32,000 nucleotides of DNA, from NCBI GenBank assembly GCA_026387835.1, contig JAPLKZ010000010.1, forward strand, positions 296,379 through 328,378, in the 5' to 3' direction. Positions 3,978 to 21,977 of the stretch are shown here, piece by piece (position 1 is the stretch's first letter; each line of letters starts with the position of its first letter). A program made the translations under genes and the position numbers. The notes below the pieces were generated by a model. The model had not been told where the DNA came from. It made no database searches and was given only the letters and a program-made list of their open reading frames with translations. This DNA comes from Candidatus Saganbacteria bacterium (lineage in GTDB: Bacteria; Margulisbacteria; WOR-1; JAKLHX01).

Positions 3978-4048
3978 TGCCGGATCGGCTAACGGTAGGC
4001 CATCGCCCTTTGGAGGCGACTATCCTGGTTCGAGTCCAGGTCCGGCAG
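3978..4048 (+). tRNA. tRNA-Gln (anticodon UUG)
   Basis: Hand-folded cloverleaf. Acceptor stem TGCCGGA/TCCGGCA (U1:A72, discriminator G73). D stem GGCT/GGCC with loop AACGGTA. Anticodon stem TCGCC/GGCGA with loop CTTTGGA, giving anticodon TTG. Variable loop 4 nt. T arm CCTGG-TTCGAGT-CCAGG. CCA is not encoded. Confidence 0.85.
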
Positions 4049-4483: not shown

Positions 4484-5110
4484 TCATTTAAGCACTTTAC
4501 CGGTTTCAAGATACCAAAGATAAAGATCGAGCTCTCCAAGGCTCATGTTCATTTTTTTTGCGAGTGATCTAAGGACTTTTTCAACTTCAATATATTTTCC
4601 CTTTGACATTGTCTTGAAGCTTTTTATCATTTTGTGTTCTTTCAGGATATCAACAATATGGAAATCAATTATCGCACAGTTGCAGCGTCCGATATTCCTC
4701 AGAAAATGGCTTGACTCCTTATATCCCAGCCCCTTTATATTCTTTGCAAGCCATTCTCTTACGATTTGATCCTCTGATATTTCATTTAAGATCTTTAAAA
4801 TGACTTTTTTATGTTTCCTTGCCTCCACTACGAACTTTGCCCTTGTATTTGGAAAGCGGTGCCCCAGCTCCTTAAGTCTTTTTGATAATTCTTCCAGTGA
4901 GAGTTTATGAAATCCGCCTTTGATTTTGTTTTGTATCTTTATGCTGCGTTCGGCGTTGAAATTGGCAGTCATGAGACAGAAGCAGAGTTCATTGAAAATT
5001 ACATCAATAGAACTATTACCGGCCGACCCAAACTTTTTCATCCGTTGGTCGATGACCTTTTTTATCGGGGATTTACGGAGAGATCTGATGGAGCTGATTA
5101 GTTTATGCAT
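4484..5110 (-). CDS. ogg: archaeal-type 8-oxoguanine DNA glycosylase/AP lyase (Ogg2, HhH-GPD)
   Basis: Collinear with my recollection of Methanocaldococcus Ogg: ELCFCLMTANFNAE, LGHRFPNTRAKF, NIKGLGYKESSHFLRNIG, AIIDFHI and C-terminal LDLYLWYLETGKVLK. Confidence 0.8.
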   Translation of the reverse strand: MHKLISSIRSLRKSPIKKVIDQRMKKFGSAGNSSIDVIFNELCFCLMTANFNAERSIKIQNKIKGGFHKLSLEELSKRLKELGHRFPNTRAKFVVEARKHKKVILKILNEISEDQIVREWLAKNIKGLGYKESSHFLRNIGRCNCAIIDFHIVDILKEHKMIKSFKTMSKGKYIEVEKVLRSLAKKMNMSLGELDLYLWYLETGKVLK

Positions 5111-5116
5111 TATAGA

Positions 5117-5176
5117 GCTGAAGGCTGAAGAGCTGAAGTTCTGAAGATGTCGTACTTCAGCCTTCAGCTCTTCAGC
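5117..5176 (-). terminator. large intercistronic hairpin built from GCTGAAG heptamers (terminator, attenuator or RNA-stability element between rbr and ogg)
   Basis: gctgaagagctgaag (5124-5138) pairs with cttcagctcttcagc (5162-5176). ctgaag (5141-5146) pairs with cttcag (5155-5160). Loop is atgtcgta. The hairpin lies 9 nt after the rbr stop and 6 nt before the ogg ATG. There is no U-run on the minus strand, so classical termination is uncertain. Confidence 0.5.
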
Positions 5177-5185
5177 ACTTTGTTT

Positions 5186-5767
5186 TCAGTAATTCTCCGC
5201 CAATATTTCGTAATAAGCCTGGGGATGCTTGCAGGCCGGGCATTCTGCCGGAGCTTCAGTACCTTCATGGACATACCCGCAATTGCGGCAGCGCCATTTC
5301 ACCGACTTATCTTTTTTAAATACTTTATTTTCTTTCACGCTTGCAAGGAGTTTTCTGTATCTTTTCTCATGCTGGGCCTCGACTTCCGCGATCTCACGGA
5401 AAGATGTCGCAATATCCTGAAAACCTTCCTGCTCCGCGGTATCCGCCGCTTCTTTGTACAGTTTTGTCCATTCCATATTCTCTCCGGCTGCCGCGCCTTC
5501 AAGATTCTTTGCAGTAGTACCGATCACCCCGGCAGGATATCCCGCGGTTATCACCAGCTCTCCGCCTTCGAGATATTTAAAGAATACTTTTGCGTGTTCT
5601 TTTTCATTTTCGGCCGTTTCAAGGAATATCGCCGATATCTGTTCCAATCCTTCCTTTTTTGCCGCTCCCGCGAAATACGAGTACCTGTTTCTCGCCTGTG
5701 ATTCGCCTGCAAATGATGCTAATAGATTCTTTTCCGTCCTCGTCCCTTTAACTGATTTTGCCATCAT
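5186..5767 (-). CDS. rbr: rubrerythrin
   Basis: N-terminal ferritin-like diiron domain ([22 protein letters not shown]) plus a C-terminal rubredoxin-like CRNCG...CPAC domain. AAGGAG SD upstream. Confidence 0.9.
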
Positions 5768-5779
5768 TTTTCTCCTTTT

Positions 5780-6160
5780 TTAAGATTTCCAGAGTCCGTG
5801 CAGATTGCAGTATTCCCTTGCGGACATCGTCCCGTTTGCCAGTTTAAATACTGCTTCGGGCGTCATGCCCGGCCTTAGGAATTCCCGATAAGATCTGTCT
5901 CCCGCTATTATCTGCACCCATTGTATATAATGCTTGTCCTCCATCGGGTGCGCAATGCTCCCGATCTTTACTTTGATCCCTTCGGACATTTTTTCAATGA
6001 CCGGCACGTGTTTTTCTTTTGAAGCATCAACCGTGTTCTCTACCTGAAGGACCATCGGCTGTCCGCAGCAGACCAACTCTCCTCCTCCGACGAATAATAC
6101 TTCGACTATATTTCCGCAGACGCTGCATTTATAGACTTCCAGCCTGTTTGCTACTGCCAT
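5780..6160 (-). CDS. dfx: desulfoferrodoxin (2Fe superoxide reductase)
   Basis: N-terminal desulforedoxin CSVCGNIVE...CCG and a neelaredoxin domain ([25 protein letters not shown]). AAAGGAG SD. Confidence 0.9.
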
Positions 6161-6180
6161 GTTTTGCTCCTTTCGATTTT

Positions 6181-6678
6181 CTATCCGTGAAATTTTCGTT
6201 GCCCCAGCAATGCATCCAATCCGGCAATCTTTTCTTTAGAACCACCTGCCTTTTTAAAATTATTGACCTGCTTTTCCGCTGATTCTTCCTCTTCAACCTG
6301 TTCTTTGACAAACCATTGGAGGAATTTTTCAGCATCGCTTTCTTTTTCCGACCTCGCCATTTCAACCAGAGCGTTTATCAGTCCGGTGACCATTTTTTCA
6401 TGAGCCAGTGTGTGCTCAAAAGCGGCAAGAGGGCTTTCCCATTGAGACTCCGGAGCCTCGATAGGCAGCATCAGCGCTCTTGATCCTCTGGCGTACAGAT
6501 AATCATATATCTTAGTGGCGTGCACCATCTCTTCCTGAAACTGGACCTTCATCCAGTTCGCGCCTCCCTTCAGGCCGATGGAATCAAAATATGAGGCCAT
6601 TGAAAGATAAAGGTACGCGGAATAGATCTCCCTGTTGACCTGGACATTGAGCGCGCCGGATAACTTGTTGGATATCAC
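6181..6678 (-). CDS. ftn: non-haem ferritin
   Basis: [22 protein letters not shown]....[21 protein letters not shown] matches Ftn-type ferroxidase-centre residues. The GTG start shares one nt with the rubredoxin stop (TAGTG). Confidence 0.85.
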
Positions 6679-6839
6679 TATTTTATTTCCTCAAACTGGT
6701 CTTTGGCCGCCCCGCATACCGGACAGACCCAGCTATCTGGCAGTTTTTCAAACGGTGTGCCTGCCGGCGCTCCGTTATCCGGGTCCCCGCTTGCCGGGTC
6801 ATAAACATAACCGCAGACATTGCATACATATTTTTTCAT
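6678..6839 (-). CDS. rub: rubredoxin (53 aa)
   Basis: Absent from the ORF track (under 60 aa). Hand translation from ATG 6839-6837 gives [53 protein letters not shown]. It has the two CxxCG knuckles and the canonical Y.YDP...F..LP..W.CP.CG core. GGAGGG SD sits 5 nt upstream. Confidence 0.9.
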
Positions 6840-6871
6840 TTATTCCCTCCGACTTGCTGATGATAAGACCA

Positions 6872-7687
6872 TTATAGAACATTTTCGACAAGTTCGATCA
6901 TCGGGTAATTTTCTTTGAACTCTTTATGATTAGTTGCCTTTATTTTTTCGGTTTCATTGGCATGAAGAAGATAATATCTACACTTGTCGGCAAGGCCTTC
7001 ATACGCAAAAGACTTAAAAGACACTTTTTCGTAAGGATTAATATCGGATTCTTCCGCCACGATAAAACATTTGTTGTTCAACAGATAAGATATTCTCGGC
7101 GCTTCAAATATTTTTGCATCATAAAAATGCATGCTCAGGGCGATCCTGGTCCTTGCGATGATTTCATCTCTTTCTTTGCCGTATACCCCGAAAAGCACCT
7201 TGACGTTTATGTTCTTAAGTTCGTCCAGTACTTTTTTTCTTCTTTCGTTGATGCTCCCGTAGAACAGGACATCGATGTCTTTGTTGTTGCCGGCATCCGG
7301 AATTAATTCGAGTTTTTCATGGTAGCCGACTGGCAGATATTTTGCTTTAAGGCCTCTTTCGTTCAACCGCTTAATGTTCTCCAAAGAATAATCCCATATC
7401 TCAAATGCGTTCTCCAAAAGTTTTTTCTGGTTTTCGCTGTCCCAGCCCCCTTCCGCACCTATCTGCTCAAATTGATATGGGATATATTTTATTTCTTTCA
7501 TCCCGTCATTAAATGGGATAAGGTGATAGCCCAAAACAATATTGGTTTTTTCTTTGTTCAGATAGTTTTCTTTTATCTCTGCTGCTATTCCGAGCGAATC
7601 AAAAGAGCTTTTAAGTAGTAATGCTATTTCGTCAAAGCATTTTGCGTGAATATAACCATCCGGATGAATGAGACAGATATTATACAT
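6872..7687 (-). CDS. hypothetical protein with glycosyltransferase-family-1-like C-terminal half (CgeB / Glyco_trans_1_2-like)
   Basis: DIDVLFYGSINERRKKVLDELK...VLFGVYGKERDEIIARTRIALSMHFYDAKIFEAPRISYLLNNKCFIVAEES resembles the GT1-type C-terminal module, by recollection only. Its ATG directly abuts the fprA stop (TAAATG). The gene is AT-rich. Confidence 0.4.
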   Translation of the reverse strand: MYNICLIHPDGYIHAKCFDEIALLLKSSFDSLGIAAEIKENYLNKEKTNIVLGYHLIPFNDGMKEIKYIPYQFEQIGAEGGWDSENQKKLLENAFEIWDYSLENIKRLNERGLKAKYLPVGYHEKLELIPDAGNNKDIDVLFYGSINERRKKVLDELKNINVKVLFGVYGKERDEIIARTRIALSMHFYDAKIFEAPRISYLLNNKCFIVAEESDINPYEKVSFKSFAYEGLADKCRYYLLHANETEKIKATNHKEFKENYPMIELVENVL

Positions 7688-8863
7688 TTATAGTGTTTTA
7701 TGTTTTTCTGCTATATTTTCTGCAAGTTCCTGTATCAGCTTATGATCATTCTCTTTAGGATATCCTTTTATTATTACCGGCTCTATCAGTTCCACTTTCA
7801 AATTAGTCAATTGTCCTGTTATTGTCTCGACAAGCTTGCTGCCCCAGCCGAATGAACCGATAAGTGAAGCAAATCTTGTCTTTGGCCTCAGAGCGTTTGC
7901 GAGATAAGCGGCATAGACCGCCAGCGGATGCGCCTGCGCAAGCACAGCAGGAGCCCCTATTACAACAGTTGCCGCATCTACTAAGGACATTGCAAGTTCT
8001 CCGATATCTGTCTTCGGGATATTGAACGGTTTTACTGTGATGCCCTTTTTAGTCAGCTCGTCCGTTAATATCTCTACCATCTTTTGGACACTGCCGTGCA
8101 TGGAAACATAGGGTATCACGACTTCATTGGCAACTTTGTCCGATATCCAGTCTTTATAAGCTTCGATTATGAACTTAGGGGTCTGATAGACCGGACCATG
8201 GCTTGGACAGATCATGTTAATTTCGTATGAGGCAAGTTTTTCAATATGGCCTTTGATACTCACTCTGAATGGCATCATTATCTCCGCATAATATCTTTTT
8301 GCGCTTTTATATACATCCGCTTCGTTCTCAACAAAAAGGCCTGACTGCGCTCTGTGGGAACCGAGAAAATCGCACGGGAATAATATCTTATCTTCTCTAA
8401 GATATGAAAATATCGTTTCCGGCCAGTGTACCCACGAAGCATGGATGAACTCCAGCGTCTTGTTCCCCAGGGAAATCGTCTCTTTATCTTTTACCGTTAT
8501 TATTCTGTCTTCAGCGGCAAGAGAAAGATCCACAAGCATCCCTTTGCACTTCTCGCTCGAGATGACCTTTGCCTTCGGGAACCATTCAAGTGCATTCGGG
8601 ATCGAACCTGAATGGTCCTGCTCGGCATGATTGCAGATGATATAATCAATATTTTTTATTCCTAAAGATGTCAGATTTTCTTTGAGGGTTGCTGTCTTTG
8701 TTGGATCGACTGTATCAATAAGAACGGTCTTTTCACTGCCCTTGATCAGATAAGAGTTATAGCTCGTGCCGTCGGGAAGCGGTATCAGCTCATCAAAAAG
8801 CCTTCTGTCCCAGTCGACCGCGCCAACCGCGAAGATATCATCTTTTATTTTCTGTGCCGCCAT
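7688..8863 (-). CDS. fprA: flavodiiron protein (A-type flavoprotein, rubredoxin:O2/NO oxidoreductase)
   Basis: N-terminus VGAVDWDRRLFDELIPLPDGTSYNSYLI, a metallo-beta-lactamase-like H.E.DH motif (CNHAEQDHSG) and a C-terminal flavodoxin-like domain. Confidence 0.9.
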   Translation of the reverse strand: MAAQKIKDDIFAVGAVDWDRRLFDELIPLPDGTSYNSYLIKGSEKTVLIDTVDPTKTATLKENLTSLGIKNIDYIICNHAEQDHSGSIPNALEWFPKAKVISSEKCKGMLVDLSLAAEDRIITVKDKETISLGNKTLEFIHASWVHWPETIFSYLREDKILFPCDFLGSHRAQSGLFVENEADVYKSAKRYYAEIMMPFRVSIKGHIEKLASYEINMICPSHGPVYQTPKFIIEAYKDWISDKVANEVVIPYVSMHGSVQKMVEILTDELTKKGITVKPFNIPKTDIGELAMSLVDAATVVIGAPAVLAQAHPLAVYAAYLANALRPKTRFASLIGSFGWGSKLVETITGQLTNLKVELIEPVIIKGYPKENDHKLIQELAENIAEKHKTL

Positions 8864-8875
8864 TATATTGCTCCT

Positions 8876-9808
8876 TTACTTTATACCTAATATTATAAGC
8901 CACACAGGCAGGTATATCACCGAAAGAACTGAAGAAATGATCGTCAGCGTCGCGATCAAACCTTTGTAAAAATCATACCTTTCACTGAACACTATCATTG
9001 ATACCGCGACCGGCATTGCGTTCATGAGCAATGCAATGTTTTTTTCTGGCCCATTAAGGTTGAAATATACGCATGCCGCCAGTGCAACCAGTGGCAGAAT
9101 AATTATTCTGAGAAGGCTCAGCACAAACGCGGCAGGGACGCTTTCAAGTCTTTTGCCGAACATGACCATGCCCAGCATGAACAGGGCCACGGTCGCTGTG
9201 GTGCCGCCAAGCATATGAAGCGTCTGGGAAAGAGGAGAAAACATCCTCACTTTTAAAAGCGCCATGATAAACCCGGCGAAGATGGATATTATAAGAGGGT
9301 TCTTGTAAAATACCGAGATCAGCCTTTTTATTCCGCCCAAAAAGGATATCCGCCCCATTTTATACAGTTCCAGTACCAGCACAGTCAAAATAACGCCCGG
9401 TATCGCGATCGCGGCGACAGACAGGACCGCCAATTTCTCCGCGACCAGCGTTGGGAACGCGAACATAATAAAAGGGATCCCGAAAAATGCCGTGCTCCCG
9501 AAGGCAGTACAGAATATCAGAAGATAGAGAAGTTCCTTTTTGAACCTGAAGATTAAGAATAATAATAAATAGAAGGCGGCAATGATCATTGTCGGCAGAG
9601 CGCAAGCGATCATAAAATTGAGCGTACTCTGGTTAAATTCGGTTTCGGCAATGTTTACGAACAGAAGCGCCGGAAGCGCAAAATAATAAACATAGGAACT
9701 GAAAGATCTGTCATCTTCCTTCTTGAATATCTTAAATGCTTTTGACAGATACCCCAGAAGTATCAGCAAAATTATCGGCAGCAATGTCCTTATGATTATC
9801 TCTGCCAT
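8876..9808 (-). CDS. AEC (auxin efflux carrier) family permease
   Basis: 310 aa with about 10 hydrophobic segments. The N-terminus LLPIILLILLGYLSK...F.......Y.ALPALLF is typical of the AEC membrane-transport family. Confidence 0.7.
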   Translation of the reverse strand: MAEIIIRTLLPIILLILLGYLSKAFKIFKKEDDRSFSSYVYYFALPALLFVNIAETEFNQSTLNFMIACALPTMIIAAFYLLLFLIFRFKKELLYLLIFCTAFGSTAFFGIPFIMFAFPTLVAEKLAVLSVAAIAIPGVILTVLVLELYKMGRISFLGGIKRLISVFYKNPLIISIFAGFIMALLKVRMFSPLSQTLHMLGGTTATVALFMLGMVMFGKRLESVPAAFVLSLLRIIILPLVALAACVYFNLNGPEKNIALLMNAMPVAVSMIVFSERYDFYKGLIATLTIISSVLSVIYLPVWLIILGIK

Positions 9809-9820
9809 AGATTTCCCGTT

Positions 9821-10342
9821 TCAGCTCTTCAGCTCTTCAGCGCTAATATATGTCGGCGCCGTTTTCGGGGATTTTCCTTTTAAATACTCATGATAATAGG
9901 AATATGTCATTGGTTCTTTATCGGATAACACCCTTGAATCTGTGATCTCGCCGATGAATAGCGTATGTGTCCCGACATCAAGAGATTTTACAACCTTTCC
10001 TTCAAGGCTTGCGACGGCAAAATCAAGCACGATAGGAACTTTTGAGGTGCCTGTTTCATATTTTGTATCCTTAAATTTATCGGTATCTCTTCCACTTTTA
10101 AATCCGAACTTCCCGATGAATATCATCGGAGTTTCCTGCGACAGGACCGAGACAGAAAATATTCCGCTTGAAGAGATGAATTCATGTGTCAGGTTCTGTT
10201 TATTTATACAAACCGCTATCTGCACTGGCTCCGACGTCACCTGGAATACCGTGTCGGCTATCTGACCGTTGATGTTGCCGTCTTTAGTCGAACAGACGAC
10301 ATACATGCCGTATGACAATTTACGAAGGGCTGAAGTGTCCAT
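9821..10342 (-). CDS. flavin reductase-like FMN-binding domain protein (likely NAD(P)H:rubredoxin-type reductase module)
   Basis: LSYGMYVVCSTKDG..NGQIADTVFQVTSEP..IAVCINK.N.THE.I..SG.FSVSVL and GTHTLFIGEI match the flavin-reductase-like domain, as found in the N-terminus of Moorella Hrb. No SD. TAAAAT lies 6 nt upstream of the ATG. Confidence 0.75.
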   Translation of the reverse strand: MDTSALRKLSYGMYVVCSTKDGNINGQIADTVFQVTSEPVQIAVCINKQNLTHEFISSSGIFSVSVLSQETPMIFIGKFGFKSGRDTDKFKDTKYETGTSKVPIVLDFAVASLEGKVVKSLDVGTHTLFIGEITDSRVLSDKEPMTYSYYHEYLKGKSPKTAPTYISAEELKS

Positions 10343-10400: not shown

Positions 10401-10436
10401 CCAACAAAAAGGCCCTGTTTTTTAAGCAGAGCCTTT
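10401..10436 (-). terminator. rho-independent terminator after the isomerase gene
   Basis: The minus-strand RNA aaaggcucug-cuuaaaaaa-cagggccuuu forms a 10-bp stem including one G.U, followed by uuguugg. It lies 56 nt downstream of the stop at 10493. Confidence 0.6.
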
Positions 10437-10492
10437 CGTTTAACTTACGGACACGACAGAGAGGGCAGGTGTAGTCGCGCCCGCGTTGGGAC

Positions 10493-11848
10493 TTAATTTT
10501 CCGTCGCGTCCAGCCCCGCAACGATCTTCTCGAACTTCGCCATCGCCTTTGTGCCTTCCGGAGTACCGGCCCTTCTTATGGCCAAGAGGTACCACTGCAG
10601 CGCAGCGTTGCCTCCGCCCATCTGATCATTTACCGCTTTCATCAGTTTTTCATGCGGATGCCTTCTTGCCTGACTGAATGCAGCTGTCAGCTGAGTATAA
10701 TTGATATCCAGGGCCTCGCTTAATGGCATTCTTAGTGGGTTGATGTCCGGCGTATTCACGCCTTTGTATCCTGCCATCTGAAGCGCCCATGCAATCGGTT
10801 CGATCATATCAAATTCATAAGCCCCTACGTTGTCATCGATATCATAATTTCCTTTCGGCTGACCGTTCCAGTGTATGCAGAACAACCTTGAATCCATCAG
10901 GCAATCCATGAATGCAGCTGGCAGATTTTCAAATCCCATCTGCATGTGTCCGATCTCCGGGGTCATTCCTACCATTCTGATCCCATGATCAAGCAATGCC
11001 CTGTTGGTTGAACTGGTAAGCCTTAATTCAATTGCCCTGGCAAATGTCAGTCCTTTTGCCGTGGAATCCATATGGTTAACGCCTCTTGGCTCATATGGTT
11101 TCGGTTCCTTTGTAGCCTGCTGCCCGGGCACCGCATCCATTGCATCTGCTGTCGCACCGGCTATCATATCCCTGACCCATTTGTAGTTGCAACCGAATGT
11201 ATTTTCTACCCCGTCTATACCATACCAGTGGTTTACGGTCGGGATCCCCAAAAGATCTGCCATCTGGAAAGTTTCAAGCTGCCTTCTTCTGGCAAATTCC
11301 CTTATCGCCTTGTTCGTGTTGGTCAAGGAGCCGTGCTGGAAGATCGCATCAGCAAAAAGGAGAGGAACTATCGAATCCACCCCAATGCCGGTTTTTTGCA
11401 TCATCTCTACCCATTTTACAACGTTTTGAGGACCAAGCTCTCCTGGATAGTGGCACTGCAGGGATATTTTAACGCCGATTTGTTTCTGCATCGCTGCCGT
11501 TCTCTCAAAGATCCACTGAACCCACTGGTCGCTCCCTTTCTCACCGCCGCAGAGTTCCTTTACATCTTCGTATCCGGCATGGAATCTTGTTCCGCTCTTT
11601 GGATAATACCAGACGCCCGCCGAAGCATTAAGCGGGATCTCATGTGTCGACATTAATTTGATCCGATCTTTCCCTGTTAATGCTAAATTAACCGCCTGAT
11701 GCCTTGTATCGATCACCTCTCTGTCCGCTACAAAACGCATCCCCAATCTTTGTCTTAGGGGTGCATTTACTTCTCTTACATTTGCCGGAAGCCCCAATGC
11801 TTTCGCGCTTATTTCTGATGGTGCCGGGATCACTAATTTAACTCCCAT
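10493..11848 (-). CDS. xylose-isomerase-like TIM-barrel sugar isomerase (divergent, substrate unknown)
   Basis: Collinear motif pattern with xylose isomerase: W.G.DG.E, KEPKPYEP (cf. IEPKPQEP), EIGHMQM (cf. NIEANHATLAGH), HWNGQPKGNYDIDDNVG (cf. VDANRGD..LGWDTDQF), AGYKG. AAGGAG SD. Confidence 0.6.
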   Translation of the reverse strand: MGVKLVIPAPSEISAKALGLPANVREVNAPLRQRLGMRFVADREVIDTRHQAVNLALTGKDRIKLMSTHEIPLNASAGVWYYPKSGTRFHAGYEDVKELCGGEKGSDQWVQWIFERTAAMQKQIGVKISLQCHYPGELGPQNVVKWVEMMQKTGIGVDSIVPLLFADAIFQHGSLTNTNKAIREFARRRQLETFQMADLLGIPTVNHWYGIDGVENTFGCNYKWVRDMIAGATADAMDAVPGQQATKEPKPYEPRGVNHMDSTAKGLTFARAIELRLTSSTNRALLDHGIRMVGMTPEIGHMQMGFENLPAAFMDCLMDSRLFCIHWNGQPKGNYDIDDNVGAYEFDMIEPIAWALQMAGYKGVNTPDINPLRMPLSEALDINYTQLTAAFSQARRHPHEKLMKAVNDQMGGGNAALQWYLLAIRRAGTPEGTKAMAKFEKIVAGLDATEN

Positions 11849-11975: not shown

Positions 11976-12003
11976 CTATCGAACGCCTTTTCCGGAAATT
12001 TCA
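11976..12003 (-). promoter_or_regulatory. ECF-sigma-like promoter motif, copy D: TGAAAT-N16-CGATAG (upstream of isomerase)
   Basis: Minus strand reads TGAAATttccggaaaaggcgttCGATAG. It overlaps the stop codon of the mutarotase-like gene and lies 127 nt upstream of the isomerase ATG. Confidence 0.45.
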
Positions 12004-13167
12004 CTTCATTTTTGACAGCAGGTATTTTTCGACCAGAGCCTTCGGGTCATTGACCTGATCTGTCTGTATTGCGTCAATAAAAAGTTTTGCCGGATAAAAT
12101 GTGTTCTTGGGCCTGGCCGTTTCAAATGTATCGATGCCGGACAACTGCGCCAGCGCGACTGACTTTTGTATCCCCAGAGGAAATGGGGTGTTGGACGGCT
12201 CGAGCCCCAACACCTGAGTCCTGGGTATTTTCCCGTCTGTTGACCACGGTGTCGCTGTCTTTGATCTGTTCTCTATCCACCTTGCCAAGAACGGCGCATC
12301 CTCTCTTTTCCATGCTGCCATCATCGCTATTCCGAGCTTCGGGTTGTGAAGAAGGAACCATGCGTATTTCAGGTCCTTGGGAAATACCTGGGCAGTAAAA
12401 TCACTCTGCGACATTATGTTTTCGGCCGGGCTGAACGTCGACAGGTTTATGAGCGCTCCTGTCTTGCACAATCCAAAAGGCCAGACTTCTTCACCGCCTT
12501 CTTTCAGGAACTGGCTTGCGCCTCCGAAATCACCCGGAAAATTATGCACGCTTGTCCCATACGGGAGATAAAGTCTGGATGCGAGAGCGAAAGCGCCGAA
12601 ATTCATGTGTTCCGCCCATGTGATATTCTTATTTTTGTCGTCCTTGTTCTCGCATGATGTGCATATTTCAACAGATGTTCCTCCGGGAACGAACTGGAAT
12701 CTTCTTGCCACGGACCAGCCGGTTATAGGTAGTTCCGCCTGAAGGACCATTGCTGTTTCACCAGAAAGGGACCTGTTTAATGTCCATGGAACAATGTTAG
12801 CTTCGCTGTGCAGTCCACCTGTTTCTTCCATCTTTCCCGGGCCGAATGCCGGAAAGCAGAACGATGAGCCTCCGACTGACGCGCAGCGTTTCCTCACGTC
12901 CCTGCCGCCGTACTCGTCGAAAGCGGGATCGTCCAGCCCGACTTGTTGCGGATCATGCAGTTCCCACGGCGCTTGCCAGAGTATATTTGTCAATTCTCCA
13001 TTCCTGTTAAGGACGCTATAACGTCCGATATTGCCGCCGCCTGCAAAAACGGAAAATTCCATGGCAAGCGCGTTTGAAAGAAACCCTTTCGGTCGGAATG
13101 ATTGTGCCCGGAATCCTATCCTCGCTCTAAATGTATCGCCTGAAGAAAAATCTATCCTATTTCCCAT
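12001..13167 (-). CDS. aldose-1-epimerase (galactose mutarotase)-like fold protein
   Basis: Track ORF 12001..13218. The start is probably ATG 13167 (MGNRIDFSS), which has AAGGAG 5 nt upstream. The all-beta-looking sequence (GGLHSEANIVPW, GLEPSNTPFP) is reminiscent of the mutarotase-like/DUF4432 families. This call is weak. Confidence 0.4.
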   Translation of the reverse strand: MGNRIDFSSGDTFRARIGFRAQSFRPKGFLSNALAMEFSVFAGGGNIGRYSVLNRNGELTNILWQAPWELHDPQQVGLDDPAFDEYGGRDVRKRCASVGGSSFCFPAFGPGKMEETGGLHSEANIVPWTLNRSLSGETAMVLQAELPITGWSVARRFQFVPGGTSVEICTSCENKDDKNKNITWAEHMNFGAFALASRLYLPYGTSVHNFPGDFGGASQFLKEGGEEVWPFGLCKTGALINLSTFSPAENIMSQSDFTAQVFPKDLKYAWFLLHNPKLGIAMMAAWKREDAPFLARWIENRSKTATPWSTDGKIPRTQVLGLEPSNTPFPLGIQKSVALAQLSGIDTFETARPKNTFYPAKLFIDAIQTDQVNDPKALVEKYLLSKMK

Positions 13168-13224
13168 AATTACTCCTTTTCTTTTAATTATTATTGATTT
13201 GAAGCCACCGATTTGCACGATTTC

Positions 13225-14841
13225 CTATTTCGATGCTGCATGGGCTTTTACAAGATCTGCCCACGGTCCTTTGTCGTTCGTCGGACAATAAGTAATATTT
13301 TCCGATCCTTTTTCCAGCATATCCATTACTTGGTCACTTTCATACCCCGAGCCTATGAGCAGGGTCGCGGCATTGCCTATCGGGGCAAGAGCTTGAAAAG
13401 TTGTTGTCACGTTCATCTGTGTTACGTTCGCAAGCGCTTGTAGCATCATACGATCGTTGATCAGGCCGCCTCCCACTATGATCCCGTCCGGTGTCCGGCC
13501 GTATAATTCATTCGTCAACGCCGCGTTCTGCCCAACCGCTTTCCCCATCGCGAGCACCATTCCCAGTACAACGCTTTTAACGATCTCGGCCTGGGTGGTC
13601 GGGGCTTCCTGACCAGTATCTGAACAGAATTGTTTTACCGGGCTGATCACCGGCCCGCCTTGCCTGTATAAGAATTTTGGGCTCATGATATCTATGACCG
13701 CGGCTCCGGTATCAGGGTTATGCACACCTGCAAATAATCTTTTGAACCTGTCAGTCTGGTCTTTCAGGCCAAGTTCCGCCAGCAATGAATCTATCAGCAT
13801 TGTTCCCATCACGTTCATGACGCCAAAAGTCGCCGCTGTCCCGCCTTCAACGCCGATCTTATGTTTGTAAAGGATTTTAATCGTCTCGTCTTCAAGCCCT
13901 ACGGCATCGATAAGCGAGCATACAAGGCTCCAGGTGCCCGTAGATATGAACACATTATTACCGGTGGATAGATATTTCAGCGCGGCCACCGCACCGGCCG
14001 TGTCGTGCAATCCTGCCAGGACGACCTCGGCCTTATCGCATCCCATATCATTTAAGATCTCGGGCCTTACATCGCCCATTGACGTGCCGGTCGGCAGAAT
14101 CATCGGAAAAGCCGATACCGGTATGTCGAGCGTGTCTAAGAGCTGCTGGTTCCATCTAAGGCCGTCCCTTTTTGCACAGTTGAACACCCTGGCAAAGCTT
14201 TCTTCGGTTGCATGAACGCCTGTTAGAAAATGGTTCAGTACGTCCGGGGTCCCAAATATTCTTGCATCAGAAGGGATCTTATGTCCGGAAATTGATATGG
14301 CCGCAAGATGGAATAGATTGTATACTGTCTGCCATCCCTGTCCTGCAGACTGGCTGTGTATCATTTTAAATGCTTTTTCAAGATCACCGCCTGCGATCAT
14401 ATCCGCGATATACTGCGCTCCGGCGCTTTGACCGGGATGCGTGTACATCGTAAGCGGCGTATGGATGCTCCCGTCACCGTTCAAAATTTCAAACCCCGCA
14501 CCAAAAGTATTTACCGCGATCGTCCTCGGAATAGAACGGTCGTATCGCCGGCTCACATCGAAAAGACTTTCACTGAAACCTTTCAGAAGTCCCGCCTTAT
14601 CGATCATATGGTCTGTCACAGTAAAGGGAAATGTCGCGACTCTCTCTTTTTGAACAAAAGAGAGCTGTCCGTCTGCATTGTGGACCTCAACTGTCAGCCA
14701 TCTTCCTGTACCTGAAGCTCCAAGATCTCCGATTATCAACAATCTTTCAGGGCGCTGTTCACCGTGCATTGCTGATGGTGCTGTTTTAGGCAGGACCACG
14801 GGTGCGGTCAGTCTTATATTCCTTATTAACGGTGTTGCCAT
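13225..14841 (-). CDS. FGGY-family carbohydrate kinase (rhamnulokinase/ketose-kinase-like)
   Basis: IGDLGASGTGRW (ASKHA phosphate-1), GLHDTAGAVAAL and ISTGTWSLV (cf. RhaB GHDTASAV / SSGTWSL), GGGLINDRMMLQALAN. AAGGAG SD 8 nt upstream. Confidence 0.75.
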   Translation of the reverse strand: MATPLIRNIRLTAPVVLPKTAPSAMHGEQRPERLLIIGDLGASGTGRWLTVEVHNADGQLSFVQKERVATFPFTVTDHMIDKAGLLKGFSESLFDVSRRYDRSIPRTIAVNTFGAGFEILNGDGSIHTPLTMYTHPGQSAGAQYIADMIAGGDLEKAFKMIHSQSAGQGWQTVYNLFHLAAISISGHKIPSDARIFGTPDVLNHFLTGVHATEESFARVFNCAKRDGLRWNQQLLDTLDIPVSAFPMILPTGTSMGDVRPEILNDMGCDKAEVVLAGLHDTAGAVAALKYLSTGNNVFISTGTWSLVCSLIDAVGLEDETIKILYKHKIGVEGGTAATFGVMNVMGTMLIDSLLAELGLKDQTDRFKRLFAGVHNPDTGAAVIDIMSPKFLYRQGGPVISPVKQFCSDTGQEAPTTQAEIVKSVVLGMVLAMGKAVGQNAALTNELYGRTPDGIIVGGGLINDRMMLQALANVTQMNVTTTFQALAPIGNAATLLIGSGYESDQVMDMLEKGSENITYCPTNDKGPWADLVKAHAASK

Positions 14842-14873
14842 GTTCTTTTCTCCTTTTTGTCATCCACAGGATC

Positions 14874-14901
14874 TTATCGATACGATATTCCCCAAATTTC
14901 A
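14874..14901 (-). promoter_or_regulatory. ECF-sigma-like promoter motif, copy C: TGAAAT-N16-CGATAA (upstream of FGGY kinase)
   Basis: Minus strand reads TGAAATttggggaatatcgtatCGATAA, 32 nt upstream of ATG 14841. Confidence 0.45.
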
Positions 14902-14916
14902 CGCAATTGTTAATTC

Positions 14917-16344
14917 TTACGATTCCGAGATCACTTCATCTGCGCCTGCAGACGGTTTTGCCTCAAAAAATTCGGGCTCATAGATATCCGGATAACCTGC
15001 TTCTCGCTGTTTTTGCACATATGATCGTGCTATCTCTGCTTGCGTCTCCGGGGTCATATGTTCCGGAAGGGCGACTCCTGACAGGAATCCTCCCCCTCCT
15101 CCTCCCATCATCTTCCACGCAAATGAAAACGACTGCTTTTGGAATTCACGCGAACCTTTTATGGCTTCCGCAGTCGCCTGCCTTAAAAGATCAAGGTATA
15201 GCCTTTCCTGAACTTTCCCATCCGCATCTCTGACAAGGGTCGCACTCACCCGGAATTTACCGGTCATTGAAAGCTCATCTCCTTCTTCATTGATCGCTTC
15301 CAGGCATCCCATAATATTATTTGCACGAAGGTTCCGGATAAATCTCAAAACCCTTGCCCTTTCCTGCACGACATAGATCGCCCGCATAAGCATATCCGCC
15401 CTTGCGCGGGCATCATATTTTGAAGAACCTTCTCCCGCAGATTTTGCCGCCCTGTGCATTGCTGCATCAAAGTCTCTTCTTTTTGTCGCTGTCAGACTGA
15501 TGATCTGGTTTTCCGAGTAAGCCGAGACATGCAATCCCTTTCCCGCAGGGACTTTAAATATTGTGGGCAGAAGTCTTCCAAGCCGTTCAAGTTCCCCCCT
15601 GCGTTCCATATAATATGTTCCGCCGAGGCCTCTTGCCACGCCGCTGTTGATGAGGTAAAAACCGTAACCGGCATTTGTCAATGGCGACAGGTCGACTGTT
15701 GTTATCTTTGAAAGATCGCCGAAATTTATTAATATTGCCTTGTTCTTCCCGCTGAATAAAGATGCCATCTGGTCAAGCAGCCCGCATTTTACCCGTACAT
15801 ACGGAGAATGCTCTGCTGCCTGGGCCAGATGGGCGATCTCGGTTTTTGATTTGTTCCAGCCGAATACAGCGTTCAATGCGAGGTTCATCCCCACGCAAAG
15901 CGCGGCCGATGCTGAGGCTCCTTTCCCGATAAGGCCGGCGCTGTTACCACTGATCTGGATCCGCATACCTCCCAAGGGCAGTTTGTTTGAAAGAGCTGTG
16001 CTGAAAATACCGAGCATGTATTTGCCCCATGGATCTGACGGGTTTTTGGGAGCTTCCGGCGGATGTTCCAGGGCAAAAGAAAATTCCGGTTCTTTCATTG
16101 CCGGCGAATGGATCTCCACCTTGTTGGTGCCCGGCGTCGGCGCAACGGCAATAACCGTCCTGAACGGAAGGCCAAATGCTATCGTAAGATTTGTGCCGTC
16201 TCCTTCTATTACGGAATAATCAACATGGTCCCCTATCGGCACCGCCCTCAGGGGCGCGGAAAATATCCTTTGCGGGGGGGTCTTAAACCTTCCCGCGAAT
16301 GTACTCTGGATCTGCCTGAATTCAGCTTTCGGTATAATAAACAT
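14917..16344 (-). CDS. GHMP-family sugar kinase, galactokinase-like
   Basis: APLRAVPIGDHVDYS (cf. GalK signature GR.NLIGEH.DY), GKGASASAALCVG (GHMP motif II), RAIYVVQERARVLRF (cf. RARHVVTEN.RV) and MMGGGGGGF (motif III with an unusual Gly6 run). At 475 aa it is about 90 aa longer than typical GalK. Confidence 0.7.
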   Translation of the reverse strand: MFIIPKAEFRQIQSTFAGRFKTPPQRIFSAPLRAVPIGDHVDYSVIEGDGTNLTIAFGLPFRTVIAVAPTPGTNKVEIHSPAMKEPEFSFALEHPPEAPKNPSDPWGKYMLGIFSTALSNKLPLGGMRIQISGNSAGLIGKGASASAALCVGMNLALNAVFGWNKSKTEIAHLAQAAEHSPYVRVKCGLLDQMASLFSGKNKAILINFGDLSKITTVDLSPLTNAGYGFYLINSGVARGLGGTYYMERRGELERLGRLLPTIFKVPAGKGLHVSAYSENQIISLTATKRRDFDAAMHRAAKSAGEGSSKYDARARADMLMRAIYVVQERARVLRFIRNLRANNIMGCLEAINEEGDELSMTGKFRVSATLVRDADGKVQERLYLDLLRQATAEAIKGSREFQKQSFSFAWKMMGGGGGGFLSGVALPEHMTPETQAEIARSYVQKQREAGYPDIYEPEFFEAKPSAGADEVISES

Positions 16345-16394
16345 TTTGTGCCCTCAGATCTTATCTCGCAAATATACAAAACTATTACAACAAT

Positions 16395-16422
16395 CTATCG
16401 GATGATATTTTGGGAAATTTCA
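16395..16422 (-). promoter_or_regulatory. ECF-sigma-like promoter motif, copy B: TGAAAT-N16-CGATAG (upstream of GHMP kinase)
   Basis: Minus strand reads TGAAATttcccaaaatatcatcCGATAG, 50 nt upstream of ATG 16344. About 75 nt of surrounding sequence is homologous to copy A. Confidence 0.45.
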
Positions 16423-16485
16423 GTGAATTTTTAAATTCTTTTTTCTGGCAAGGTCGGCGGCAAAAGAAAAATATTTTTCTTTTTT

Positions 16486-17460
16486 TTATTGTCTGAATAC
16501 ATATCGGACGACCCCTCCCACCTTTACCTTTTCAGCATCTGTAAGCTGTGCTGTGCCGTCGGTGGTCAACGATGAGCATATCGCGAGAAGATCTAGCGCG
16601 TATTTAAGTCCCGCCACTATTTTTCTTCTTTGCCCTGTCAACGGTATCACCGCTTCGTCTATCCTCAGTTGAAATTTGTTCATGGCCTCCAATGTTGTTG
16701 CCTCGAACAGTCTGTTCGGAAAAGGAAAGACATTCCCCATGGATGCCACGGAAAAGGTCGCCCCTGCCTTTAGCGCTTCTACTATTCTCGTTTCATCTCC
16801 CTGTCCCACTTCCACGAACCTGCTGTAACTTTCTATCCTTTCAAGGTCGCCTGAACTGTCCTTGATAGCGGGGACAATATTTGCTATGGAAGCCATCGTT
16901 TCCGGCAAAACATTCTCCCCTCTTGTGATCCCGGGATTATTATAGAAAAACAAGAAAAGCCCGCTTCCTTTTATTGTTTCATTCAGCCTTTCGGCGTGCC
17001 TGGCAATATCTCTGTTATTCCTGATGTAATATATCGGGGCTGCGACTATCCCTTTAATGTTATTGTGCACATTTGTTTCGGCTTTCCCTGCCGCGGTCCT
17101 CAATCCCGCGACAAAAGCCGCGTTTTCCAGGGTCTCCTCCTCTGAATCACCCGTAACATTCACAAAGACATTCAGGCGGGTACCCGCGCATGCCGAAAAA
17201 CTTCTGATAGTTTCTCTTCTGACCCCGCTCGGAAGGAATCTGAACTCCCCTGTTTCTCCCATTACGAAGATTGATGTACCGCCGATCTCTGTCAAATGCC
17301 TGACCAGACGACCTATCCCTTTGACATCCGGCAATAATCTTCCATCCTCCCTTATTAGCGGTGTTACGACCGGTGTGATATTTTCCCTCGCAAAAAGCGT
17401 TTTTCCTCTATGAACGATTTTTGTTGCCGGCTTTAGCGGTAATGCGTGATTGATGTTCAC
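16486..17460 (-). CDS. DHDPS/N-acetylneuraminate-lyase-family class I (Schiff-base) aldolase
   Basis: VTPL...G......L..L...G...IFVMGETGEF (GTTGE-like), FFYNNPGITRG (YN.P motif) and VPAIKDSSGD (Schiff-base Lys position). GTG start, with AAGGAG 10 nt upstream. Confidence 0.7.
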   Translation of the reverse strand: MNINHALPLKPATKIVHRGKTLFARENITPVVTPLIREDGRLLPDVKGIGRLVRHLTEIGGTSIFVMGETGEFRFLPSGVRRETIRSFSACAGTRLNVFVNVTGDSEEETLENAAFVAGLRTAAGKAETNVHNNIKGIVAAPIYYIRNNRDIARHAERLNETIKGSGLFLFFYNNPGITRGENVLPETMASIANIVPAIKDSSGDLERIESYSRFVEVGQGDETRIVEALKAGATFSVASMGNVFPFPNRLFEATTLEAMNKFQLRIDEAVIPLTGQRRKIVAGLKYALDLLAICSSLTTDGTAQLTDAEKVKVGGVVRYVFRQ

Positions 17461-17499
17461 TGAATTATGGCTCCTTCTTATCAGAACTTTTACAAATAT

Positions 17500-17527
17500 C
17501 TATCGGCGGGTATTTTTTGAAATTTCA
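17500..17527 (-). promoter_or_regulatory. ECF-sigma-like promoter motif, copy A: TGAAAT-N16-CGATAG (upstream of aldolase)
   Basis: Minus strand reads TGAAATttcaaaaaatacccgcCGATAG, 39 nt upstream of GTG 17460. Confidence 0.45.
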
Positions 17528-17568
17528 GCGAATATCAGGGAGACACATAAAAAGGGAGGCTTGGGTCC

Positions 17569-17991
17569 CTATCCTATCTTTAGAAGCCAGACCCCTATCA
17601 CAGCGAGGATGACTCCGAGCAGCTTCAAAAGGCTGAAGGATTCTCCTAGAAGAAAGATGCCAAGTACAAATGTTATAAGAGGGTAACTGCCCGATATTGG
17701 GACGATCCTGGACATTTCTCCCCATTTAAGCGCGTGGTAAAAAAGTATCGTCGCCACAAAACTCGCCAGGAACCCGCCGGTCATGACAAGCAGGGCTGAC
17801 CTGAGGTCGACTGATCTTATTTCCGCCGGCTTTAAAAAGAAAAGTACAAGTATCACCAGACCGATCAAAACGCCGCAGCTCCGGTAAAAAAGCCCGACAA
17901 GGGGTTCTATCTTCCCGAGTCCTATCTTTTCAAGCAGGGGGACAAATCCCCAGATGACGGCCGCCATTATCGCTAACCAGAAAGAGCTCAT
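17569..17991 (-). CDS. small single-domain EamA/DMT-superfamily membrane protein
   Basis: Start taken at ATG 17991 (MSSFWLAIMAAVIWGFVPLLEK). 140 aa with 4-5 TM segments and an EamA-like end (YPLITFVLGIFLLGE....LLGVILAVIGVWLL). The upstream part of the track ORF overlaps the DUF1805 gene. Confidence 0.6.
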   Translation of the reverse strand: MSSFWLAIMAAVIWGFVPLLEKIGLGKIEPLVGLFYRSCGVLIGLVILVLFFLKPAEIRSVDLRSALLVMTGGFLASFVATILFYHALKWGEMSRIVPISGSYPLITFVLGIFLLGESFSLLKLLGVILAVIGVWLLKIG

Positions 17992-21948: not shown

Positions 21949-21977
21949 TTTACATTCTTTATAAATGAATATATAAT
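21949..21977 (+). promoter_or_regulatory. sigma-70-type promoter TTTACA-N17-TATAAT for the acyl-ligase operon
   Basis: tttaca at 21949-21954 and tataat at 21972-21977 with a 17-nt spacer. ATG 21988 lies only 10 nt after the -10 element and has no SD, so the mRNA would be near-leaderless. Confidence 0.5.

Follow-up and report, generated by a model that had tools for sequence, protein, structure and literature searches.

A 32,000-nt stretch of a metagenome-assembled Candidatus Saganbacteria genome (phylum Margulisiibacteriota; contig JAPLKZ010000010.1; hereafter the window, to whose full length the coordinates refer) carries a sugar gene cluster in which every transcription unit is preceded by the same two-box motif, TGAAAT-N16-CGATA(G/A). 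We propose with fair confidence that the four copies are promoters of a single phylum-wide alternative-sigma class of the sigma-28 type, probably read by a short FliA-like sigma factor. Judging from sequence, it is very likely that the motif sites are promoters, and it is reasonably probable that the short FliA-like sigma is the factor that reads them. We infer both the transcriptional activity of the motif and its reading by the candidate sigma from motif statistics, conservation, placement, a transcription start signature and the relationships of the sigma factor. The four sites, all on the minus strand, are as follows, with transcription starts predicted from the pyrimidine-purine rule derived below from 268 sites.

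17500 to 17527, minus strand: promoter A, 5' of the gene for a DHDPS-family aldolase; exact match, 25.9 bits; -35 box TGAAATTT at 17527-17520, -10 box CGATAG at 17505-17500; predicted start G at 17493
16395 to 16422, minus strand: promoter B, 5' of the gene for a GHMP (galactokinase-like) kinase; exact match, 30.0 bits; predicted start 16388
14874 to 14901, minus strand: promoter C, 5' of the FGGY kinase gene and the DUF4432-like gene co-transcribed with it; exact match, 24.7 bits; -10 box CGATAA; predicted start 14867
11976 to 12003, minus strand: promoter D, 5' of the xylose-isomerase-like gene; exact match, 30.7 bits; predicted start 11969, leader about 120 nt

In the window the pattern TGAAAT-N16-CGATA is matched exactly four times, each time on the minus strand (17527-17501, 16422-16396, 14901-14875 and 12003-11977), and 100 dinucleotide-preserving shuffles contain no match. 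No further copy appears when one mismatch is allowed, and copies with two mismatches occur at chance level (15 observed, 14.5 expected). A weight matrix derived from relatives gives bimodal scores, with the four sites at 24.7-30.7 bits and the runner-up position at 10.1. The initial annotation of the window had reported the invariant spacing, a shared extended core (TGAAATTT, present in all four copies) and the lack of a further full copy, and all three were borne out. The distances it gave to the start codons were likewise reproduced, with 39, 50, 32 and 127 nt separating the CGATAR hexamer from the aldolase, GHMP kinase, FGGY kinase and isomerase genes. Its statement that a copy heads each transcription unit of the sugar module also agrees with the gene order, in which four units are recognised and the DUF4432-like gene follows the FGGY kinase. 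The motif differs, as described there, from the sigma-70-type boxes at 21949, 25481 and 3636, all of which are present, and no gene of the window encodes a sigma factor. At promoter D the TGA of TGAAAT doubles as the stop codon of the gene upstream. Copies A and B do have similar flanks, although the homology is shorter than the approximately 75 nt first reported, extending over about 52 nt at approximately 80% identity and then, past an 11-nt indel, to a GATAAGA block.

The motif was then found to be widespread in the phylum. A weight matrix refined on 874 kb of non-redundant DNA from species-representative loci, with a site threshold of at least 14 bits, detected 92 sites, whereas reversed or Markov nulls gave 3-5. 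Metagenome contigs, scanned independently with the pattern AAGTGAAATTTYY-N12-CGATAA, returned at least 120 loci (817 kb), which contained 75 further sites against four in the null and which, where they carried a taxon label, were Margulisiibacteriota or WOR-1. When all loci were pooled, the 1.7 Mb of Margulisiibacteriota DNA yielded 268 non-redundant sites, approximately 20-fold over the nulls, and these stand before very diverse genes, so the description of the motif as private does not hold. Additional sites occur about once per 11 kb, which corresponds to approximately 150 per genome of about 1.7 Mb and, as a rough estimate, to a motif before 15-20% of transcription units, or about one in five or six. 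Across the sites the -10 bases are C in 88%, G in 99%, A in 96%, T in 73%, A in 86% and A in 56-78%. Sites also form dense islands near the sigma gene introduced below, with six in about 8 kb in one relative (L063, 12176-20488; L-numbers denote loci fetched from relatives, each with its own coordinates) and six in 20 kb in another (L069, 688-14709). The genes in these islands encode a GH4 glycosidase, a short-chain dehydrogenase, a Memo-like protein, a methyltransferase and a number of proteins of unknown function. With its four sites within 5.5 kb, the window contains a comparable island.

The placement of the sites relative to genes is equally regular. Of the 92 species-representative sites, 90 lie outside long same-strand open reading frames (ORFs) and nearly all face a downstream start codon, with a median distance of 32.5 nt from CGATA to the start codon over the 268 sites. 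These properties bear on whether the motif could be a dispersed repeat or a mobile-element remnant without regulatory role, an outcome that the initial annotation had itself named as one that would count against its proposal. The many copies per genome and the 52 nt common to copies A and B are what might be expected of such an element. However, conservation is confined to about 14 positions per site and the flanks are unrelated among copies. The copies are almost never intragenic and always face genes, and they are kept at orthologous positions between lineages whose proteins are 50-60% identical. We rejected this explanation on the unrelated flanks and the strict orientation to genes, and consider it scarcely credible.

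A signature of transcription initiation accompanies the motif. Counting from the T of TGAAAT, a pyrimidine occupies position 33 in 81% of the 268 sites and a purine position 34, which is 7 nt after CGATA, in 88%. Long frames whose ATG lacks a Shine-Dalgarno sequence show a maximum of starts at precisely position 34 (15 found, about 1.2 expected), and no such ATG occupies position 33. The pyrimidine-purine step and the ATG peak together point to a fixed transcription start and predict that a subset of the mRNAs is leaderless. Leaderless-type examples are seen at L011 14541, L015 9517, L041 1318, L046 15715, L139 9130 and L151 3962.

The same sites might also be read as operators through which a transcription factor controls the sugar genes, given that two partly palindromic sequences occur in them. 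In the window, GAAATTTC forms a palindrome in three of the four copies, and TTCCGGAA is mildly enriched in the spacer, occurring six times against 0.7 expected from shuffled columns, with some of these sites orthologous to each other. However, the 268 sites carry their information in two dissimilar, non-symmetric boxes at a fixed spacing, with a spacer that is nearly information-free. They are strictly oriented toward genes, and the pyrimidine-purine step and the leaderless ATGs stand at a set distance from them. A consensus scan of the coding strand also found no sigma-70-like promoter in the four intergenic regions of the window that could serve in place of the motif. The operator reading was rejected on the state of the spacer and the partial orthology of TTCCGGAA, and we regard it as very unlikely. 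A known RNA element in the leaders was discarded as well, since the Rfam scan of the window matched only a tRNA (3978-4048, plus strand) and no element in the leaders, and the long leader of the isomerase shows no conservation between orthologues. The spacers that contain the palindromic TTCCGGAA are those of copy D, L049 99, L100 1431, L131 10673 and L168 867, where an overlapping operator or mere common descent could account for it.

Relatives of the sugar cluster are found in five independent lineages (L007, L009, L011, L012 and L014), with isomerases that are 53-61% identical to that of the window. The motif is upstream of the isomerase in all five, in the form aaGTGAAATTTyy-N12-CGATAa, and the alignment of these upstream regions shows practically no invariant positions outside the boxes GTGAAATTT and CGATA, with a spacer and leader that are otherwise unconserved. 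The comparison of orthologous upstream regions suggested in the initial annotation therefore came out in favor of the motif. The FGGY kinase orthologues of L007 and L009 are also preceded by it. Other genes headed by the motif in relatives encode a glutamate dehydrogenase, a HIT-family protein and several proteins of unknown function, and the motif is therefore not private to the sugar module.

The class to which these promoters belong is suggested by their register. Sigma-28 factors (FliA, SigD, WhiG) recognize the consensus TAAAGTTT-N11-GCCGATAA, in which CGA is the critical core of the -10 element and the -35 element TAAA(GTTT) lies 15 nt upstream of GCCGATAA, and they drive the flagellin, motAB, che and flgM genes. 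When CGATAA of the motif is placed at -13 to -8, G-T-G-A-A-A-T falls at -36 to -30 with AAA at -33 to -31. The motif thereby resembles sigma-28 promoters in having AAA at -33 to -31 followed by a run of T, CGATAA at -13 to -8 and a start about 7 nt further on, whereas it differs from them at -34 (an invariant G in place of T) and at -30 (T in place of G), and the extended -10 GC before CGATAA is unconserved. In the sigma-28 open complex on the Pseudomonas aeruginosa fliC promoter, TCTAAAG occupies -36 to -30 and GCCGATAA occupies -15 to -8, with the A at -11 flipped out of the helix (PMC12784957).

A candidate for the factor that reads the motif was found in L011, where a weaker copy of the motif, approximately 3 kb from the isomerase gene, heads an operon encoding two small proteins and a 196-aa sigma factor. 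For this family of about 195 aa the best NCBIfam model is FliA_WhiG (TIGR02479), and Pfam recognizes Sigma70_r2 and Sigma70_r4 (of the PF04545 type) but neither region 3 nor r4_2. A profile search against solved structures returned FliA, WhiG, SigF, SigB and RpoS, and no ECF (extracytoplasmic function) sigma at E <0.01. A structure model built from database proteins of the family (mean pLDDT 76) consists of two helical domains with a single helix and a disordered linker between them, and its closest folds are those of the group-3 sigmas SigB, SigD, WhiG and FliA. The candidate is thus like FliA and WhiG in regions 2 and 4 and in its place after flhA, and unlike them in being without region 3. 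The protein database holds 345 homologues, the best 120 of which are 74-95% identical, and the names among these listed homologues are Margulisbacteria, Saganbacteria or WOR-1. Species-representative genomes, when scanned, yielded 56 sigma loci (748 kb), 60-95% identical and nearly all labeled Margulisiibacteriota, Saganbacteria or WOR-1.

The genomic position of the candidate also points to the flagellar sigma. The gene immediately upstream of its operon is flhA in 28 of 49 loci, and in the complete genome from which L033 was taken the order by Pfam is FliK, hook protein (flgE), FliMN, FliP, FliR, FlhB, FlhA, a small protein and the sigma. As the last gene of the flagellar export cluster (flhB-flhA-sigma) in many genomes, it occupies the position that fliA has in many bacteria. 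Alignment by hidden Markov model (HMM) shows that the recognition helix of region 4 reads SESQVSR in the candidate compared to SESRVSQ in FliA, with the second of the two exchanged residues opposite glutamine Q228 of FliA, which is reported to contact -36/-35 (PMC12784957). The swap would fit the altered -35 bases of the motif, as far as an alignment can suggest, and in region 2 the candidate keeps the aspartate and tyrosine that align with the pocket in which FliA takes up the flipped -11 A.

The motif is itself found at the operon of the candidate sigma. A strong site (at least 18 bits) lies directly before the operon of the two small proteins, here termed sp1 and sp2, and the sigma gene in 18 of the 30 species with sp1, at 475-760 nt upstream of the sigma gene. 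No site is present at loci in which the sigma directly follows flhA with only sp2 between them. The small proteins are conserved within 250-750 nt upstream of the sigma (L015-L070; for example L027 9558-9827 and L033 9795-10001). Sp1 has 87-139 aa and the core SAKEL..IV.AALE.EYG.SFTLS.GF.KMV..LAD.IVTNPELRRQAL, and sp2 has 46-83 aa and the core PxGIPPxLRxFWxF...MA..F. Pfam gave no match for either at E up to 1, solved structures gave no significant match, and no anti-sigma domain was recognizable in them. An identity as FlgM-like anti-sigma factors is unsupported by these searches, and we keep sp1 and sp2 as candidate sigma partners or anti-sigma factors.

Several observations weigh against the candidate as the reader of the motif. 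It scores 72.4 bits with the FliA_WhiG model, below the family cut-off of 189.6, and its build of regions 2 and 4 only is that of an ECF sigma. No sigma gene on the contig of the window is among the 120 listed homologues, so that its presence in this genome is inferred from other Saganbacteria genomes. The autoregulation signal is real but moderate: it exceeds by approximately 3-fold the background, in which about 18% of transcription units have the motif, and is concentrated in a few clades. In one clade the site at the sigma operon overlaps sigma-70-like boxes, TTGCCA-N17-TA(A/T)ACT (TTGCCA-N17-TAAACT; L011 14541, L016 9498, L022 4511, L027 9514, L035 9526 and L038 1537), and at L025 (about 3345) the sigma-70-like boxes alone are retained. 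The overlapping boxes may form a dual promoter. No flagellar family was seen among the approximately 130 downstream genes sampled, in 1.7 Mb that held no flagellin, motA or che locus, a search of it for flagellin, motA and cheY giving only three cheY-like receiver matches (L033, L034 and L132). The link between sigma and motif is correlative.

These points lend themselves in part to a reading by another sigma factor, of group 3 or a divergent group 2, to which the association with the FliA-like operon would be incidental. With the motif before about 18% of transcription units, its occurrence at 18 of 30 sigma operons is a moderate enrichment, and the targets include rpoD and general metabolism but no flagellar genes. 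However, the register and the -10 box are specifically sigma-28-like, and the FliA-like sigma is unusually conserved, as would be expected of a factor with a large conserved regulon. No other sigma but that of rpoD was seen in the 1.7 Mb, in which the full sigma sets of the genomes were not enumerated, and this too tempers the case for the candidate. We consider a different sigma improbable.

The initial annotation had instead placed the motif with the group-4 (ECF) promoters by analogy to SigW, to be read by an ECF sigma and anti-sigma pair encoded elsewhere. The Bacillus subtilis SigW consensus is TGAAAC-N16-CGTA, and the hallmarks of ECF promoters are AAC at -35 and CGT at -10. The motif is close to this consensus letter for letter, with two short boxes, the shared TGAAA and the same 16-nt spacer. 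The two-domain candidate sigma scores 66.8 bits with TIGR02937, the generic sigma70-ECF superfamily model, whose cut-off of 42.9 it thus exceeds, and the two small co-transcribed proteins of unknown function could be anti-sigma factors. However, the diagnostic bases are replaced in 96-97% of sites, with T in 97% at -35 where ECF promoters have C (AAC to AAT) and A in 96% at -10 where they have T (CGT to CGA). The candidate is not ECF-like in sequence, given that it carries Sigma70_r4 rather than r4_2, aligns best with FliA and WhiG and finds no ECF sigma among solved structures, and it lies after flhA, in the place of fliA. Its operon showed no recognizable membrane anti-sigma factor, and a set of more than 100 promoters that includes housekeeping genes is unlike typical ECF regulons. 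ECF control is consequently a doubtful explanation in our view. What stood from the original assignment is an alternative-sigma promoter with -35 and -10 boxes and a sigma encoded elsewhere, whereas the ECF family did not, the hallmark bases being replaced and the register being that of sigma-28. As for an autoregulated ECF pair, the motif often occurs at the operon of a two-domain sigma, but the sigma is FliA/WhiG-like and no anti-sigma factor was recognized. No support was found for the analogy to the ECF/anti-sigma-controlled glycan loci of Bacteroides.

The genes that follow the motif indicate a broad role for the FliA-like sigma, if it reads these sites. Approximately 130 downstream proteins were examined by family, and many of them, including 19 of the first 30, matched no Pfam family. 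The families recognized include RRM RNA-binding proteins, Com-type zinc ribbons, Ser/Thr kinases, peptidases, arginase, a tRNA synthetase and starch synthase, as well as triose-phosphate isomerase, GH4 glycosidase, short-chain dehydrogenases and methyltransferases. The primary sigma gene rpoD is motif-headed in three lineages (L076 3669, L094 3597 and L159 6412), which suggests possible cross-regulation of the two sigma factors. Compared to sigma-28 regulons, the sampled targets are non-flagellar, far more numerous and more diverse. Non-flagellar uses of the FliA family are found in Chlamydia, where sigma-28 serves late genes, and in Streptomyces, where WhiG serves sporulation. In those systems a FliA-family sigma is likewise combined with a sigma-28-like promoter on non-flagellar genes. 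Their regulons are small and developmental, whereas the motif described here may precede 15-20% of transcription units, and many of the genomes still hold flagellar genes beside the sigma.

At each site, region 4 of the sigma in the RNA polymerase holoenzyme would bind TGAAATTT (-35 to -28) and region 2 would bind CGATAA (-13 to -8), with transcription beginning at a purine 7-8 nt past CGATA. The sugar cluster would then yield four separate transcripts, for the aldolase, for the GHMP kinase, for the FGGY kinase with the DUF4432-like gene, and for the isomerase. It would represent a densely controlled island in a broad regulon comprising around one transcription unit in five or six, and its four units are probably switched together by a global factor and not by a dedicated sugar-specific regulator. 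Going further, we tentatively suggest, as something rather less than an even chance, that the FliA-derived sigma without region 3 is a second general-purpose sigma of the Margulisiibacteriota, with the promoter aaGTGAAATTT-N14-CGATAa and some 150 or more promoters per genome of approximately 1.7 Mb. Its targets would be rpoD, central and sugar metabolism and lineage-specific genes, with many leaderless mRNAs. The linkage to flagellar export genes would have been kept, with the sigma persisting where no flagellar gene flanks it, and sp1 and sp2 would represent a novel type of sigma partner or anti-sigma factor.

Neither Margulisbacteria promoters nor the candidate sigma are described in the literature that our searches covered. 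A recent promoter-prediction preprint reports that sigma-70-based prediction often yields incomplete promoter lists in this phylum, a shortfall to which a second major promoter class might contribute. The Margulisiibacteriota are uncultured relatives of the Cyanobacteria, and a promoter class that can be recognized from sequence opens their gene regulation to study. It offers operon starts and predicted transcription start sites for annotation, defines a regulon to mine, much of which consists of lineage-specific genes of unknown function, and provides a part supported by conservation for future genetic tools. If true, it would also be a clear case of a flagellar-type sigma that has been shortened and shifted to a broad metabolic role.

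The genes and terminator-like hairpins of the sugar cluster, all on the minus strand, are as follows.

17553 to 17570, minus strand: terminator-like hairpin 3' of an EamA transporter gene and directly upstream of promoter A, from the consensus scan
16486 to 17460, minus strand: DHDPS-family aldolase, 324 aa, Pfam PF00701; GTG start behind a Shine-Dalgarno sequence
14917 to 16344, minus strand: GHMP or galactokinase-like kinase, 475 aa, Pfam PF00288 and PF10509; weak NCBIfam galactokinase matches
13225 to 14841, minus strand: FGGY-family carbohydrate kinase, 538 aa, Pfam PF00370 and PF02782
12001 to 13218, minus strand: DUF4432-like gene, weak Pfam DUF4432 match; without its own motif, 3' of the FGGY kinase
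10493 to 11848, minus strand: xylose-isomerase-like TIM barrel, 451 aa, Pfam PF01261 below the curated cut-off
10406 to 10433, minus strand: terminator-like hairpin, GGCTCTG-loop-CAGGGCC then TTTTTG, by eye, with a loop of 9 nt; closes the isomerase unit

The DUF4432-like gene is likely transcribed jointly with the FGGY kinase. Its product has 405 aa (GTG at 13218) or 388 aa in the database, depending on the contig, and the ATG at 13167 (388 aa), with a strong Shine-Dalgarno sequence in front, is likely the true start. The isomerase scores far under the cut-offs of the NCBIfam xylA and RhaI models, and proteins identical to it and to the FGGY kinase are listed under Candidatus Saganbacteria at NCBI. 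Isomerase orthologues too have analogous hairpins 3' of the gene. A conserved element of about 45 nt (TCCCAACGCGGRCGCGACTA...CYCTCTGTCGTGTCCG) directly follows the isomerase stop codon in the window (10448-10492, minus strand) and in L007 (6019-6075), with the terminator-like hairpin next, and is common to both despite proteins that are 61% identical. It is absent from L009, L011 and L012 and has no Rfam match. Directly downstream of the isomerase lies an oxygen-defence gene set (window 4484-10342, minus strand; L009 12727-17061) encoding a flavin reductase, a Mem_trans permease, an ODP/metallo-beta-lactamase-fold protein, rubredoxin, a ferritin-like protein, desulfoferrodoxin and rubrerythrin. 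The motif precedes none of these genes, and their order beside the isomerase is kept in the window and L009 and partly in L007.

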